A DNA stretch of 7,942 bases from a virus (lineage: Duplodnaviria; Heunggongvirae; Uroviricota; Caudoviricetes). The notes beneath the pieces are model-generated. The model was not told where the DNA came from. It searched no databases and saw nothing but the letters and a program-made list of their open reading frames with translations. The DNA lies in the IMG/VR virus record IMGVR_UViG_2740892235_000013; one strand, 5' to 3'. The translations under genes and the position numbers were made by a program. Every line of letters begins with the position of its first letter. Position 1 is the stretch's first letter. This document shows positions 148 through 7,647 of this stretch, one piece after another.

Positions 148-148
148 G

Positions 149-250
149 GATAACTTCGGAGACCTGAGAAAGGCAGTCGATCGCACTTATGCTGAAATGG
201 GTATGGATGGTGTAAGCGATGAAATATGGCGTAATTACACAGACAGCTAA
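149..250 (+). CDS. 3' terminal fragment (33 codons) of an unidentified upstream gene; 5' part lost in the gap
   Basis: Open frame from the gap edge, ...DNFGDLRKAVDRTYAEMGMDGVSDEIWRNYTDS, stop TAA 248-250, followed 6 nt later by a strong intrinsic terminator. A 33-codon open frame alone is weak evidence; the terminator placement supports it. Confidence 0.35.
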   Translation, partial: DNFGDLRKAVDRTYAEMGMDGVSDEIWRNYTDS

Positions 251-255
251 TCAAC

Positions 256-287
256 AGCCGGAGCAATCCGGCTTTTTGTTATTTTTT
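256..287 (+). terminator. Rho-independent terminator downstream of the upstream gene fragment
   Basis: Perfect 7-bp stem agccgga (256-262) / tccggct (267-273) with 4-nt loop gcaa, followed by a T-rich tract ttttgttatttttt. Confidence 0.7.
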
Positions 288-398
288 GTAAATTATTTGT
301 TCGTGGTTGTTCCACGTTGTTCACTGAGCGGATCGGCATATTTTACCCGAACTGAATCATGATTATTCTCGCCCGTGGTGCCAGGACGCTGGGGCCAC

Positions 399-446
399 TT
401 TCCCGCCTGTTAATGTGCCCGCCAATATTCATTACCAGGCGGGAAA
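399..446. promoter_or_regulatory. Perfect 11-bp inverted repeat with 26-nt spacer in the capsid leader; candidate operator or RNA structure
   Basis: tttcccgcctg (399-409) is the exact reverse complement of caggcgggaaa (436-446). It lies in a 287-bp non-coding leader (251-537) with no ORF on either strand. Confidence 0.3.
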
Positions 447-537
447 ACGATCGGTGCGATTGCTGATTTCCTTATGAAAAACGGTTGAGTGTTTGCCGCG
501 TCCTGGAGTTCCTTACTTAACCCCAGGACTTTTTTTT

Positions 538-2451: not shown

Positions 2452-3829
2452 ATGTGGCCTTTCAGAAGAAAAAAAGAGCAGCGCAGCATGACGCTTGATG
2501 AATTTATGGCGCTGGCTGGCACATCGAACACGGGGGCGGGTGAGTACGTATCATCGGGGACAGCGGAATCACTGCCCGCCGTCATGAACGCCGTCACGGT
2601 CATCTCTGAGGCGGTGGCTACCATGCCGTGTTACCTGTACCTGGTACGCAATGAGAAGGGGAAGGAGGCCCGCGAGTGGCTTGATTCTCATCCGGTCGAT
2701 CACATCCTCAACGAGCGCCCGAACGCATGGCAAACCCCCTACCAGTTTAAGCGAATGATGATCCGCCACTGCCTGTTAAACGGTAATGCTTATGCGGTGA
2801 TTCAGTGGGGGCGTGATGGTTTTCCGGTGGCTTTACATCCTTACCCGCCGCAGTCGGTGAACGTGGAGCAGACAGGTGAGCATAACTGGCGCTACTGCAT
2901 CACTGACGCCTACACCGGAAACACCCGCAACTATTTACCGTGGGAGGTTCTCCACCTTCGTTACTCCACGGATGACGGTTTTATGGGGCGCTCACCTGTA
3001 ACCATCTGCCGCGAATCGCTGGGGCTTGGGCTGGCCCAACAACGCCACGGCGCGAGCGTGATGCGTGATGGCATGATGGCGGCAGGGGTTATCACGTCAG
3101 GCGAATGGCTGGACGGCGTGAAGGGCAAACAGGCATTAGCCGCACTGGAACGCTACAAAGGGGCCAGAAACGCCGGAAAAACGCCCATCCTTGAAGGGGG
3201 TATGAGCTATCAGCAGCTGGGCATGAGTAATCAGGATGCTGAATGGCTGGCCTCCCGTCGCTTCACCATTGAAGACATCGCCCGAATGTTCAACGTCTCG
3301 CCGATTTTTTTNNNNNNNNNNTAAAGGGGCCAGAAACGCCGGAAAAACGCCCATCCTTGAAGGTGGCATGAGTTACCAGCAGCTGGGCATGAGTAACCAG
3401 GATGCTGAATGGCTGGCCTCCCGTCGCTTCACCATTGAAGACATCGCCCGAATGTTCAACGTCTCGCCGATTTTTTTGCAGGAATACAGCAACAGCACCT
3501 ACAGCAATTTCAGCGAGGCAAGCCGCGCATTTCTCACCATGACGATGCGCCCGTGGCTGGCGAACTTTGAGCAGCAGATAAAAAACGCCCTGCTGGTGGC
3601 CTCGCCTGTACCTGGTATCCGGTATCAGGTGGAGTTTGACAGCGCGGACCTGTTACGGGCCACACCTGGCGAACGCTTTGCCACCTATGAGCGCGGCATC
3701 AAATCCGGCGTTATGTGTCCGAACGAAGCCCGCGAACGTGAAGGACTGTCACCGCGTGATGGTGGTGATGAGTTCAGCCAGGCATGGAAACAGGAAGTAA
3801 AAATCAGCGAGGGAGAAAAACCGGAATGA
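2452..3829 (+). CDS. Portal protein, HK97 family (about 403 aa once the duplication is collapsed)
   Basis: ATG 2452 is 1 nt after the protease stop. Portal-like sequence throughout (RESLGLGLAQQ, GMSNQDAEWLASRRFTIEDIARMFNVSP, PWLANFEQQI). Frame broken only by the N run at 3312-3321 plus a 155-bp duplication (166 nt net). Stop TGA 3827-3829. Confidence 0.9.
3157..3477. repeat. Tandem near-identical overlap (3157-3311 and 3323-3477) around the 10-N gap at 3312-3321; assembly artefact inside the portal gene
   Basis: The copies differ at 5 positions, all synonymous third-codon changes (ggg/ggt, ggt/ggc, agc/agt, tat/tac, aat/aac). Confidence 0.85.
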
Positions 3830-4460
3830 ACATAGGGCGACTGCGTGACAGGGTAACGATTCAGACCCTGAAACAGACCAGGGATATAACCGGCGAAATA
3901 CTCGAAACGTGGGAGGACAGTCACACACTCTGGGCAAGCGTGAACATGGTCAGCAGCAAGGAGGCCATTTCATCGGGTGCAGAGCTGGCGATTGGTACCG
4001 TAAGGATCTGGATACGGTACCGGAAGGACATCAGCGCCACCAGCCGGATAAAGGTCAATACGGGGCCGCTGGCGGGGCGTGTACTGAATATCATCGGGCA
4101 GCCGCTGCCGGATGCCGCCAGGACACGCCTTGAAATTCNNNNNNNNNNATAACGATTCAGACCCTGAAACAGACCAGAGCCATGACGGGCGAAATACTCG
4201 AAACGTGGGAGGACGGTCACACACTCTGGGCAAGCGTGAACATGATCAGCAGCAAGGAGGCCATTTCATCGGGCGCAGAGCTGGCGATTGGTACCGTAAG
4301 GATCTGGATACGGTACCGGAAGGACATCAACGCCACCAGTCGGATAAAGGTCAGTACGGGGCCGCTGGCGGGGCGTGTACTGAATATCATCGGGCAGCCG
4401 CTGCCGGATGCCGCCAGGACACGCCTTGAAATTCTTTGTCGTGAGGGCGCGGAAAAATGA
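3826..4460 (+). CDS. Head-closure / head-tail joining protein (SPP1 gp16-like family), 112 aa once collapsed
   Basis: ATG 3826 overlaps the portal stop (ATGA). Family-like pattern LRDRVTIQ...GE..ETWED.HTLWASV...S.KEAISSGAELAIGTVRIWIRYRKDI. Frame interrupted by the N run at 4139-4148 plus a 286-bp duplication (296 nt net). Stop TGA 4458-4460. Confidence 0.8.
3854..4434. repeat. Tandem near-identical overlap (3854-4138 and 4150-4434) around the 10-N gap at 4139-4148; assembly artefact inside the head-closure gene
   Basis: About 10 substitutions between copies, including amino-acid changes (DI/AM, S/G, V/I, S/N, N/S) and synonymous changes. Confidence 0.85.
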
Positions 4461-4916
4461 CAGAAGAACTTATCACCCTGGAAGAAGTGAAACTCCATTG
4501 CCGCATCGATGGCGACGATGAAGACCAGTTAATCAGCGGATACATTGCCGCATCGCTTGAGGCGTGCCAGATACACATAGGCAGGCGCTTTGATGACGGG
4601 CTGGAGTTCACGCCAGCCATAAAGATTGGCTGCATGATGTTTATCGCTCACCTGTANNNNNNNNNNTATCGATGGCGACGAGGAAGACCAGTTAATCAGC
4701 GGATACATTGCCGCATCGCTTGAGGCGTGCCAGATACATATAGGCAGGCGCTTTGATGACGGGCTGGAGTTCACGCCAGCCATAAAGATTGGCTGCATGA
4801 TGTTTATCGCTCACCTGTATGAGAATCGCCAGATTGTCGCGGATAACGCAAAAACACGCGTACCCATGACGATTGGCGCACTCTGGACGGCTTACCGTGA
4901 TGTGGGGGTGTACTGA
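4457..4916 (+). CDS. gp6-like head-tail connector protein, 98 aa once collapsed
   Basis: ATG 4457 overlaps the upstream stop (ATGA). N-terminus MTEELITLEEVKLHCRIDGDDEDQLISGYIAASLEA is typical of gp6-like connectors. Frame interrupted by the N run at 4657-4666 plus a 152-bp duplication (163 nt net). Stop TGA 4914-4916. Confidence 0.75.
4505..4819. repeat. Tandem near-identical overlap (4505-4656 and 4668-4819) around the 10-N gap at 4657-4666; assembly artefact inside the connector gene
   Basis: Two substitutions between copies: gat/gag (Asp/Glu) and cac/cat (synonymous). Confidence 0.85.
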
Positions 4917-5522: not shown

Positions 5523-5645
5523 TGAGGCTGTATGACGGGGTGGGGGGCGTTTTCAGGACCAACCCGACCCCGCCGGGCACCGAACGCCTCCTCAAATTTT
5601 TATGCACGGGAATTTTTTGAAAAATAATCTGGCGAAAAAATAAGC
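5523..5645. promoter_or_regulatory. Non-coding spacer upstream of terS; candidate cos/packaging-initiation region
   Basis: 123 bp with no ORF. G-run gacggggtggggggcgttttcagg followed by C-rich caacccgaccccgccgggcaccg, then an AT-rich tract (aaatttttatgcacgggaattttttgaaaaataat). Sits between HNH and terS, where cos lies in HK97-type phages. Confidence 0.35.
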
Positions 5646-6002
5646 ATGGCAAGACCACCGAAAGCCCCCGCCTACCTGGATGATATCGCCGTGAAGCAGT
5701 GGCGGGAAAAATCGCGGCAGCTTGCGGAACGGGGAGACCTGACCCCCGCCGACTGGAGCAATCTGGAACTGTATTGTGTCAACTACTCCATTTACCGGAA
5801 AGCCGTTGCAGACCTTGCGGCGCGCGGGTTCAGCATTGTTAACAGTCAGGGCGGCGAGAGCAGAAACCCCGCATTAAGCGCAAAATCCGACGCTGAAAGA
5901 GTGATGATAAAAATGGCCTCCTTGCTCGGTTTTGACCCGATAAGCCGCCGTAAAAATCCACCGGAAACAGAAGAAGAGGACGAGCTTGACCGCCTGGAAT
6001 AA
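5646..6002 (+). CDS. terS: Terminase small subunit, P27 family, 118 aa
   Basis: ATG 5646, stop TAA 6000-6002. P27-family-like pattern (LTPADWSNLELYCVNYSIYRKA...NPALSAKSDAERVMIKMASLLGFDPISRRK) with an acidic C-terminus. Confidence 0.85.
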   Translation: MARPPKAPAYLDDIAVKQWREKSRQLAERGDLTPADWSNLELYCVNYSIYRKAVADLAARGFSIVNSQGGESRNPALSAKSDAERVMIKMASLLGFDPISRRKNPPETEEEDELDRLE

Positions 6003-7647
6003 GTACGCAGAAGACGTAAAAACGGGCAAAATTCCGGCCTGTAAACGGCTGAAACAGGCCGTTAAACGGTACTTTTCGGACCTTGAAAGCCCCCTTTACA
6101 CGTTCGATCGTGAGGTTGTGGAGCGGTTTATTGCCTTTTCCAGGGTGTGCCCGCACGTAAAAGGGCCGATGCGTGGCAGACCCATTGAGCTGGAGCCGTG
6201 GCAGCAGTTCGCCTTTGCGTGCATCCTCGGCTTTAAGGTTAAGGCCACCGGACGGCGCAAATACACGAGCGCCTTTATCGAAGTGCCGCGCAAAAATGCG
6301 AAATCCACGACCGCCGCGATTCTGGCTAACTGGTTTCTGATTATGGAGAACGGGCAGCAGGATATTTACACCGCAGCGGTGAGCCGTGACCAGGCGCGGA
6401 TCGTTTTTGATGATGCGCGTCAGATGTGCCTTTTATCCCGACCGTTACGCAGGCGGGTGAATATTCAGGCCCACAAGGTGATGCACCCGAAAAGCAACAG
6501 CCTGTTAAAGCCGCTGGCAGCAAAAGCGGCAACCATCGAGGGAACAAACCCCAGCCTTTCCATCGTGGACGAATACCACCTACACCCCGATAACGGCGTT
6601 TATTCCGCGCTTGAGCTGGGGATGGGCGCACGTCCCGAAGGGCTGTTATTTGCCATTACCACATCGGGCAGTAACGTCGTTTCAGCCTGTAAACAGCACT
6701 ATGATTATTGCTGCCAGATCCTGGACGGCGAAGAGGTCAATGATTCAATTTTTGTGCTGATTTACGAGCTGGACGACGAAAACGAGGTTGATGATCCGGC
6801 GATGTGGATAAAGGCTAACCCTAACATCGATGTTTCCGTGGATCGTGAAAAACTGGCCTCAACCATCCAGAAAGCGCGGGGTATTCCGTCGCAATGGGTG
6901 GAGATGATGACAAAGCGATTTAATATCTGGTGCCAGGGGGCTACCCCGTGGATGGGTAACGGCGCATGGGCTGAGTGTGCCGGAACGTTCACGGAGGAAG
7001 ATTTACACGGGCAGGAGTGTTACGCGGGGCTGGACTTATCATCAACCAGCGATATTTCCAGCGTGTGCTATGCCTTTCCGGTCGGTAAAAATATCATGCT
7101 GGTTTCCCGTCATTATCTGCCGGAGTTCCAGCTACAGAACCCCGCCAATAAAAACCGCGCTGTCTATCGCCAGTGGGCTAAAGCGGGCTGGATACGCACA
7201 ACGCCAGGTGACTGCATTGATTACGACCGGATCAGAGATGACATCATGCAGGATGCGGAGAAATTTAATATCAGGCTGGTGGGCTTTGATACGTGGAACG
7301 CCACGCATCTCAGGACGCAATTACAGGGGGCTGGTTTTGAGGTGGAGCCGTTCCCGCAAACCTACCTCAGATTCAGTCCGGCGGCGAAATCGTTCGAAGT
7401 TTTTGTTAACCGCAGGGTGATTGTGCATCGTGGCGATCCGGTGTTGTCCTGGTCGATGAGTAACGTCGTGATGCAGAGTGACGCGAACGCCAATATCAAG
7501 CCGAACAAGAAAAAATCACCGAACAAGATAGACCCGAGCGTAGCGGCGCTGATGGCGTTTGGTACATTCCAGGCAGAGCATGAGGATTTTGCTTTTGATA
7601 TAAGCGACAGCCACCGCCAGAAACTGGAAGAATTTAGCGGGGTGTAA
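5986..7647 (+). CDS. terL: Terminase large subunit, 553 aa
   Basis: TTG 5986 is the only start codon in frame after the upstream stop at 5941-5943; it overlaps terS by 17 nt with a purine-rich stretch (gaagaagagga) upstream. N-terminal blocks typical of this terminase family (YAEDVKTGKIPACKRLKQAVKRY, HVKGPMRGRPIELEPWQQF), P-loop-like PRKNAKSTTAA, acidic nuclease-domain residues downstream. Stop TAA 7645-7647. Confidence 0.9.
   Translation: MTAWNKYAEDVKTGKIPACKRLKQAVKRYFSDLESPLYTFDREVVERFIAFSRVCPHVKGPMRGRPIELEPWQQFAFACILGFKVKATGRRKYTSAFIEVPRKNAKSTTAAILANWFLIMENGQQDIYTAAVSRDQARIVFDDARQMCLLSRPLRRRVNIQAHKVMHPKSNSLLKPLAAKAATIEGTNPSLSIVDEYHLHPDNGVYSALELGMGARPEGLLFAITTSGSNVVSACKQHYDYCCQILDGEEVNDSIFVLIYELDDENEVDDPAMWIKANPNIDVSVDREKLASTIQKARGIPSQWVEMMTKRFNIWCQGATPWMGNGAWAECAGTFTEEDLHGQECYAGLDLSSTSDISSVCYAFPVGKNIMLVSRHYLPEFQLQNPANKNRAVYRQWAKAGWIRTTPGDCIDYDRIRDDIMQDAEKFNIRLVGFDTWNATHLRTQLQGAGFEVEPFPQTYLRFSPAAKSFEVFVNRRVIVHRGDPVLSWSMSNVVMQSDANANIKPNKKKSPNKIDPSVAALMAFGTFQAEHEDFAFDISDSHRQKLEEFSGV

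Follow-up and report, generated by a model that had tools for sequence, protein, structure and literature searches.

Why does a phage satellite keep a long stretch without annotated genes directly in front of its capsid gene? This question is raised by positions 251–537 of IMG/VR record IMGVR_UViG_2740892235_000013, a 7,942-nucleotide (nt) viral sequence referred to here as the window. Judging by its gene organisation, the window's element is a capsid-forming phage-inducible chromosomal island (PICI), a phage satellite, of Escherichia coli. The interval begins directly after the stop codon of perC (248–250) and ends at the ATG (538–540, + strand; RefSeq annotation and capsid alignment) of an HK97-type major capsid protein, the first gene of the packaging operon. 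An initial annotation, made from the sequence alone, took the interval as the control region of the morphogenesis operon and pointed out an inverted repeat within it. Our analysis supported the assignment as a control region. Furthermore, the repeat is very probably the central hairpin of a conserved, structured leader RNA, and on balance we lean towards a model in which a ~160-nt cis-acting structured 5′ leader on the capsid-operon mRNA would gate capsid expression.

The inverted repeat and the leader RNA

The repeat was exactly as first described: TTTCCCGCCTG at 399–409 and CAGGCGGGAAA at 436–446 are perfectly complementary across a 26-nt spacer. A repeat search extended the arms to 17 nt (399–415/430–446) with 94% complementarity, one mismatch, and a 14-nt loop. 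Since only 12 of 2000 dinucleotide-preserving shuffles of 251–537 (~0.6%) contained a perfect inverted repeat of ≥11 bp (loop ≤60), the repeat alone is unlikely to have arisen by chance. Folded as RNA, it formed a hairpin of −22.6 kcal/mol (z = −5.4), and the region 372–545 gave −66.9 kcal/mol on the + strand, where the z-score was −5.09 vs. −2.97 on the − strand. The interval had also been said to lack open reading frames (ORFs). This holds for ORFs of 60 amino acids (aa) or more; ORFs of 20–47 aa are present, and none of them is conserved. The substitutions among relatives followed the pattern of helices, not that of codons.

Related leaders were collected through the capsid protein in viral contigs (61 distinct leaders) and through an exact match to the 5′-terminal hairpin, termed Pa (79 more), among at least 120 contigs. 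A scan of genome contigs with a capsid-alignment profile, whose peptide patterns were too specific, yielded only four loci, and the diversity came from the viral contigs. All recovered leaders share one plan: Pa, the central hairpin Pb, a pyrimidine-rich linker, and a hairpin over the ribosome-binding site. In the window, Pa (375–398, + strand; −15.9 kcal/mol, z = −3.7) consists of an outer stem (375–379/394–398), an inner stem CCAG/CUGG (381–384/389–392), and the loop GACG (385–388). Pb (399–446, + strand), which was identified by fold and covariation, is the inverted repeat itself, with 11 bp, one mismatch, 5 bp, and the 14-nt loop. It directly abuts Pa, and the two together span 72 nt (375–446). 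A weak G·U-rich hairpin, Pc (449–468, + strand), was seen in the minimum free energy fold only and is not conserved beyond the window-type lineage. The last hairpin, P3/T (500–537, + strand), pairs GUCCUGG with CCAGGAC (500–506/523–529; inner pairs 508–510/519–521) and is followed by eight U residues (U8, 530–537) that abut the start codon. Its 3′ arm contains the ribosome-binding AGGA (525–528), and its fold was −14.1 kcal/mol (z = −4.4). Leaders of other loci are designated here by L numbers. In L069, the stem of P3/T is kept with a different loop, and in L003 the stem has 11 bp and was flagged by a terminator scan. Other lineages carry a hairpin over the ribosome-binding site at the same position, without the U-run.

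Comparison with homologous elements, which had been suggested as a check, indicated that the repeat is kept as a structure at the same place, with its arm sequences varying. Pb occupied the same position in 120 leaders and was built from 48 distinct stems, mostly of 9–13 bp, with loops of 9–49 nt; examples are UUUCCCGCCUG/CAGGCGGGAAA, GCCGCCUGAC/GUCGGGCGGC, GGCCGUUAAGUC/GAUUUAACGGCC, GUCCACCUGG/CCAGGUGGAC, and GAUCCCCCGG/CCGGGGGAUC. RNAalifold on a plain MAFFT alignment recovered Pa, Pb, and P3, and served as the unfitted control for a covariance-model alignment of 52 distinct sequences. In the latter alignment, 96.4% of the cells were paired vs. 36–50% with the partners slid, percentages that are inflated by the fitting of the alignment to the structure. 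Double-change cells numbered 147 vs. 40 ± 7 in shuffles, and eight of the nine Pb pairs showed compensatory changes. The inner stem of Pa was 100% paired and covaried as CCAG/CUGG, CUCA/UGAG, and CUCC/GGAG. In Pb and P3, G·U was found 45 times and A·C nine times; in the L076-type 5′ arm, three positions were changed and the same 3′ arm was still paired through G·U. Because G·U outnumbers A·C and the Pb stems vary with compensatory changes, we concluded that the conserved structure is one of + strand RNA rather than of DNA. Conserved secondary structure and compensatory substitutions, the features expected of a structured leader, were thus both present on the transcribed strand.

A covariance model built without window-type sequences matched the window at 371–476 on the + strand (23.5 bits, E ~1.6e-5), the next match having 6.6 bits; it placed Pa and the repeat in register and aligned the repeat as Pb. 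With default filters at E ≤0.01 this model missed the window-type leaders, which were found with the filters off. A scan with the window-type Pa 15-mer gave only chance matches beyond near-identical leaders and L069, and added no covariation within the window lineage. No Rfam (15) family was found in the window at E ≤1, and the complete island and three relatives gave no match at the gathering threshold. When the window-type leader was compared with a phage collection using blastn, only 21-nt chance matches were obtained; the L004-type leader matched three satellite-like records. The leader appears to be an undescribed RNA family.

The initial annotation had allowed the repeat to be either a protein-binding site or an RNA secondary structure, and the covariation and G·U pairs favored the latter. 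An operator for a dimeric repressor or activator would suit a perfect 11-bp palindrome-like repeat near a promoter, but conserved half-sites at a fixed spacing, at or 5′ of the promoter, would then be expected. The leaders look different: the arm spacing ranges over 9–49 nt, the arms are unrelated between lineages yet always complementary in the 48 stems, and G·U is preferred to A·C. The repeat also lies at about +25 to +72, 3′ of the predicted start, and its arms have no copy at other island promoters. A protein operator was therefore not supported, and we consider it very improbable.

Further features of the repeat were observed. In Klebsiella-type leaders (L167, L091, and relatives), Pb opens at its top into a three-way junction, and the two arms are capped by GNRA-type loops (GCGA and GAGA); the base of the helix is conserved, its top varies freely, and in the window the top is just a 14-nt loop. 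A second copy of the 5′ arm (TTTCCCGCCT) lies at 698–707 within the capsid ORF, where the 3′ arm could pair, and such 10-mers occur at chance level. The 11-mer AACGATCGGTG at 446–456, just 3′ of the repeat, recurs at 4441–4451 of L001, the matching E. coli chromosomal locus described below, beside the attL-side TTGT repeats; ~0.6 matches are expected by chance.

Alternative pairing over the ribosome-binding site

A second, long-range helix was identified in the leader. The segment 381–389 (CCAGGACGC, + strand) is a perfect 9-nt complement of 498–506 (GCGUCCUGG, + strand), and the pairing, termed P1, was supported by complementarity, RNAalifold, and covariation. Its 5′ strand overlaps the 5′ arm and loop of Pa, and its 3′ strand shares bases with the 5′ arm of the last hairpin. 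Because the two segments overlap both hairpins, Pa, P1, and the last hairpin are mutually exclusive. RNAalifold picked P1 on an alignment fitted to no structure. P1 was 97.6% paired with two covarying pairs, and its 3′ element NCGUC was invariant in position, its first base covarying with Pa. In diverged lineages, an equivalent pairing of 7–8 bp was found with the compensatory forms GACGC:GCGUC, GACGU:ACGUC, and GACGG:CCGUC, in which the base beside the loop covaries, and with G·U in L068; the inner stem of Pa covaried at these same positions. In the diverged lineages, AGACGUGA pairs with UCACGUCU, which overlaps a GGUUUC-CGU/ACG-GAAACC hairpin that includes the ribosome-binding GGA.

The window-type leader combines two elements of an attenuator, namely a G+C-rich hairpin with a U-run, in this lineage only, and an antiterminator helix overlapping the 5′ arm of that hairpin. 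Since the U-run is confined to the window-type lineage, control of translation initiation is the more likely general function, with attenuation added in this lineage. Candidates for a sensor were also sought. No conserved small ORF was found in the leader, and no Rfam aptamer matched the window, the island, or three relatives. Searches of the island proteins against Pfam and PHROGs identified no RNA-binding protein except ProQ in some relatives, and a search for pairing partners of the leader elsewhere in the island gave 10-mer matches at chance level. PerC, encoded directly upstream, was considered as a general partner of the leader and rejected, as some islands with the same leader family have no perC.

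A leader of this kind might also be passive, Pa and Pb shielding the capsid mRNA from 5′-end-dependent decay and the last hairpin tuning translation, with neither switch nor signal. Hairpins of 5′-terminal geometry protect E. coli mRNAs, for example in the ompA leader, and Pa begins 0–3 nt from the predicted 5′ end. The hairpin at 1848–1869 after the capsid gene would bracket a stable monocistronic capsid mRNA, and by predicted energy the default fold is strongly preferred to that with P1. What passive protection leaves unexplained is the 8–9-nt complement of the Pa apex, which is kept with compensatory changes just 5′ of the ribosome-binding site, even where the last hairpins are unrelated in sequence; the invariance of the Pa sequence is likewise unaccounted for. 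We therefore regard a purely passive leader as unlikely.

The hairpin and U8 also resemble a terminator whose product could act in trans. The window-type leader would then end at U8 and be released as a ~160-nt small RNA (sRNA) acting on helper-phage or host mRNAs, comparable to ligands of Hfq or ProQ. The near-consensus promoter that drives the L003 leader and the ProQ/FinO-domain protein encoded two genes upstream in some related islands would fit such an RNA. In most lineages, in contrast, the U-run is missing and the leader continues directly into the capsid start, and no significant complementarity was found within the island, where 10-mers occurred at chance level. Release of a trans-acting sRNA is quite improbable in our assessment.

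Promoter, phased repeats and the proposed gate

The promoter of the capsid operon was placed by comparison among lineages. A weak sigma-70 promoter was predicted at 342–369 (+ strand), with the −35 element TTTACC (342–347), a 16-nt spacer, and the −10 element TATTCT (364–369), and its register relative to Pa is kept across lineages. In the window, TATTCT is followed after six bases by TGGTGCC. In L003, which is homologous to the window from 376, TTGCGA-N16-TATAAT stands at the same register, six bases before TGGTGCC. TTTACA-N16-TATGTT in L004 and TTTACT-N16-TATCTT in Klebsiella-type leaders occupy this register as well. The fixed register and the natural promoter swap in L003 place the promoter at 342–369, and a transcription start at ~375–378 is inferred from them. 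The initial annotation had chosen TTGTTC (317–322) and TATTTT (339–344) as the promoter elements. Both hexamers are present, 16 nt apart; as a promoter the pair was not supported, because TTGTTC is the third unit of a phased repeat and TATTTT overlaps the −35 element.

This phased repeat consists of three TTGTTC units spaced by 10 bp (starting at 297, 307, and 317; 297–326, + strand) and is a candidate site for AlpA or the arm-binding domain of Int. The pattern TTGT-N6-TTGT-N6-TTGT (≤1 mismatch) had nine matches in the complete island, where 0.16 are expected. They form four clusters: 5′ of int beside attL, in the int–alpA spacer (opposite strand), in the capsid leader, and beside attR. A match outside these clusters, at L001 19338–19361 with one mismatch, is also on the attR side. 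In L001, phased TTGT(T/G)C clusters lie at 4400–4438, 5773–5826 (− strand), 6028–6065 (− strand, degenerate), and 19705–19728. A diverged E. coli lineage has kept the repeats. These positions suggest that one factor acting at both att arms probably also binds 5′ of the capsid promoter, AlpA being the leading candidate and the arm-binding domain of Int the alternative. AlpA is known to activate its own promoter and downstream PICI genes, and its family includes the P4 excisionase Vis, an AlpA homologue (PMC6092414). Overexpression of AlpA alone is reported to drive reproduction of the prototype island and to be enough for capsid production (bioRxiv 10.1101/2025.02.11.637232). Elements of other genera mostly lack the TTGT repeats, and 9-mers common to the promoter-upstream region and the rest of other-genus islands formed no clear clusters.

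Two further elements precede the promoter. An intrinsic terminator of the perC operon lies at 256–278 (+ strand; terminator scan, −12.6 kcal/mol, z = −4.2) and comprises a stem (256–273) with a 4-nt loop, followed by a T-run. An upstream terminator had been placed before the interval, whereas it actually lies inside it. A conserved box, TTGTAAATTATTTGT (286–300, + strand), is found ~90 nt 5′ of Pa in all lineages, including E. coli, Klebsiella, and Salmonella-type leaders, and is still kept at this distance in the other genera in which the TTGT repeats are mostly absent.

Here, we propose a model of gated capsid expression. The terminator at 256–278 would insulate the operon from perC read-through. 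An island factor bound to the phased TTGTTC repeats (297–326) would then allow the weak promoter (342–369) to fire, and the transcript would begin at the foot of Pa, with Pb following. In the default state, the last hairpin (500–529) pairs the AGGA and may act as a translational lock; in this lineage, the U8 that follows may make it an attenuator or terminator as well. Formation of P1, which excludes Pa and the last hairpin, would make the ribosome-binding site accessible and disrupt the terminator, and Pb may clamp the two P1 strands close together. As P1 is the less stable pairing, the default state would be closed and switching would need a trigger; P1 might be favored by a protein, by an RNA, or through folding kinetics. 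The chances that gating operates in this way seem to us evenly balanced.

In addition to the inflated paired percentages described above, several points weigh against the gating model. The P1 conformer is 6–12.6 kcal/mol less stable than the default fold, and no more than about three independent lineages contribute to the covariation of P1 and the inner stem of Pa. Any role as a terminator would be limited to the window-type lineage, the only one with the U-run. Among 18 other-lineage loci scanned, the TTGT repeats occurred in only four, in two of them 5′ of Pa, so the activator site is lineage-specific. Transcription start, termination, and translation at this locus are predictions throughout. 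Finally, Pa is invariant in sequence, not just in structure, across very diverged islands, its Klebsiella/E. coli form being unchanged in at least 120 viral contigs, which hints at a further constraint beyond the model, such as a host factor or promoter-proximal DNA. Invariant Pa might be recognised by a host or helper component (RNA polymerase in the manner of put RNAs, an RNA chaperone, or another RNA-binding protein), in which case the capsid would be licensed after initiation, independently of AlpA, by a new class of satellite regulatory RNA; we rate this as distinctly unlikely.

If gating operates as proposed, the mechanism is a new form of a familiar leader-switch theme, known from the attenuators of trp and pyrBI, the T-box leaders, and the lambda PR′-6S-tR′ late leader. 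As in attenuators, a promoter-proximal transcribed leader carries a hairpin with a U-run just before the first gene, and an upstream segment, itself tied in Pa, has the 5′ arm of the terminator hairpin as an alternative partner, which gives three exclusive helices. Unlike attenuators and the lambda late leader, the capsid leader has no leader peptide, tRNA or ligand pocket, or Q-binding or pause element; its U-run occurs in one lineage, and what all lineages have in common is that the ribosome-binding site is occluded. Masking of that site is also known from translational operators such as phage Mu mom/Com and the alternative structures of lambda cIII. Like these, the leader holds the ribosome-binding site in the 3′ arm of a hairpin from which an alternative structure would expose it, and its architecture of Pa, the Pb clamp, and the long-range helix P1 is distinct from theirs. 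In the immunity leader of satellite P4, seqA/seqC pairing, which involves the processed trans-acting CI RNA, causes premature termination in the early replication operon. Both satellites have an operon controlled, or in our case possibly controlled, by RNA–RNA pairing within the leader; here, unlike in P4, the complementary segments are in cis and would control the capsid operon, and the two leaders showed no similarity in sequence.

The put RNAs of phage HK022 offer another precedent: nascent Pa and Pb could attach to RNA polymerase, which would then read through the leader and post-capsid terminators without a protein factor. The put RNAs and the Pa–Pb unit alike are ~70 nt long, form two adjacent stem-loops, and start a long phage-type operon with terminators, and a dedicated protein is not obviously needed in either. 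The architecture and position fit putL, in which two stem-loops lie just 3′ of the promoter and an AGACG:CGUCU helix is also present (PMC9378689). The terminator-like hairpins at 500–537 and 1848–1869 would have to be passed in the operon, and the capsid production reported for AlpA overexpression alone (bioRxiv 10.1101/2025.02.11.637232) would fit as well. Against this, the leader covariance model found nothing above 5.4 bits in HK022 bases 22000–34000, which include the PL/PR region, and blastn found no phage relatives. The second stem-loop of the capsid leader is hypervariable, its stem and loop ranging freely from a 9-nt loop to a three-way junction, unlike an RNA surface docking on polymerase. 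Moreover, most lineages have no leader terminator, and the shared pentamer could be a coincidence. A put-like function is accordingly judged improbable.

AlpA as a Q-like antiterminator was also considered and rejected. The island AlpA has 62 aa and only the helix-turn-helix domain PF05930, and therefore lacks the ring-forming part of AlpA of Pseudomonas aeruginosa, in which residues 128–142 contact DNA and the N-terminal segment forms a ring at the polymerase exit channel (PMC9371919).

Upstream variants, packaging site and the island

The DNA 5′ of the leader differs among islands. In O157-type islands, a 74-aa gene and a second copy of the terminator are inserted between the perC terminator and ~255, so that the terminator is doubled, one copy on either side of the gene cassette; from terminator to ATG these islands are otherwise conserved relative to the window. 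The small protein (phrog_1957), with its own terminator, is encoded directly 5′ of the leader at L002 3228–3452 (74 aa) and L004 2230–2478 (82 aa in L004–L006). O157/EDL933-type islands and the diverged E. coli lineage have it, the window's island does not, and it could be an accessory gene or a regulator. The diverged E. coli lineage (L004–L006) has a capsid protein 64–75% identical to that of the window; it shares the overall plan of the region with the window, and high identity only in the block TTTTGTAAATTATTTGTTCGTGGTTGTTCCA(C/G)GTTGTTC. In this lineage, a ProQ/FinO-domain protein (PF04352, E = 5e-24) replaces PerC two genes 5′ of the leader (L004 1709–2239 and L005 1690–2232). FinO-domain proteins bind stem-loops with 3′ tails, and this one could therefore be a lineage-specific partner of the leader.

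In strain KY176 (L003), only 376–537 is common with the window, and the upstream DNA is unrelated. The repeat module is replaced there by ~330 bp (L003 2165–2500) that end in a terminator-like hairpin and the near-consensus promoter TTGCGA-N16-TATAAT. The position of this promoter exactly at the leader start suggests constitutive transcription of the leader in this variant. In L095, L148, L150, L160, L165, and L091, a terminator-like hairpin with a T-run lies ~30–60 nt 5′ of Pa, between the TTGTAAATTATTTGT box and the −10 region; the −35 position falls inside the T-run, and the arrangement of promoter and upstream element is unlike that of the window.

As the largest non-coding stretch beside the head genes, 251–537 had also been proposed as an alternative location for a packaging site. 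In HK97-type HNH/TerS/TerL systems, cos lies next to terS. A related Klebsiella satellite, vB_KppS-Ant, has a linear record that was obtained from an induced prophage; its left end is 22 nt 5′ of terS, and its right end, in the HNH–terS spacer, corresponds to window position 5559 (GGGGTGGGGG.GTTTTCAGGAC|). The packaging site is thus probably in the HNH–terS spacer and not in the capsid leader, for which a role as a cos or pac site was not supported and seems extremely improbable. A G-rich spacer at 5523–5645, between the 60-aa ORF that follows HNH and terS, is the probable cos region.

Window bases 148–560 match a chromosomal locus of E. coli O43 RM10042 (NZ_CP028122.1; L001) with 100% identity, and sequence related to them was found in 438 of 5,426 complete E. 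coli genomes. There, an island of ~15 kb is inserted in tqsA, which it splits, and the genes from int to terL and one small ORF occupy L001 4495–19027 (RefSeq annotation). The genes of the first half, all on one strand, are int, alpA, an icd-like gene, small ORFs, a RepA-type helicase gene, ssb, and perC. After perC follow the genes for the major capsid protein, prohead protease, portal, head closure, connector, and HNH, and a 60-aa ORF; the 3′ end carries terS (P27 family), terL, and a 93-aa ORF. The island thus has int, alpA, a replication module, and its own packaging genes, has no tail or lysis genes, and occupies ~15 kb at a dedicated att site, as is characteristic of capsid-forming PICIs. 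The prototype of these elements is EcCIEDL933 (bioRxiv 10.1101/2022.09.08.507074). The O157-type relative has the same gene layout as the RM10042 island, and in O157:H7/EDL933-type islands the leader is 97.9% identical to that of the window. Window-type leaders were found in 360–438 of 5,426 complete E. coli genomes, O157:H7 included, and a sister form in 153 further genomes and at least 120 viral contigs from other Enterobacteriaceae.

Within the window, the 3′ end of perC, a PerC-family regulator gene, lies at 148–250 (+ strand; RefSeq annotation, Pfam PF06069, E = 2e-44). The window sequence is stitched, with runs of ten N at 138–147, 1339–1348, 3312–3321, 4139–4148, and 4657–4666, each with duplicated flanks, and bases 1–137 are a near-duplicate of 538–677 with a few differences. 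The stitching artificially breaks the capsid, portal, head-closure, and connector ORFs, and an apparent 306-aa capsid ORF is an artefact; the interval 251–537 is clean sequence, free of stitching. Right after the capsid stop codon and before the protease gene, the strong terminator-like hairpin at 1848–1869 lies within 1848–1879 (GAAGGGGCUU AAAA GCCCCUUU, −16.3 kcal/mol). It is likely a device that raises capsid protein over the downstream products, and it would be a terminator that any read-through mechanism must pass.

Capsid-forming PICIs are recently recognised, widespread satellites that build their own capsids and take only tails. The switching on of their capsids has so far been described only as AlpA-dependent. 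The EcCIEDL933-family papers, as far as searched, report this dependence and variable regions flanking the packaging module, and no description of a promoter, leader RNA, or terminator was found in them (bioRxiv 10.1101/2022.09.08.507074 and 10.1101/2025.02.11.637232). A literature search returned nothing relevant on a leader, sRNA, or terminator in these islands. The present analysis supplies an anatomy for this step: an insulated predicted promoter with repeats phased as at the att arms, and a conserved, unannotated leader with mutually exclusive folds over the ribosome-binding site and, in this lineage, a putative terminator. The leader is common across genomes, and compensatory test mutations are easily designed. 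If the switch is real, it would offer a handle for switching satellite capsid production on or off, of interest for engineered PICI 'drones' and for gene transfer across species. If Pa is indeed recognised by a host or helper component, it would add a second, RNA-level checkpoint to the conflict between satellites and their helpers.

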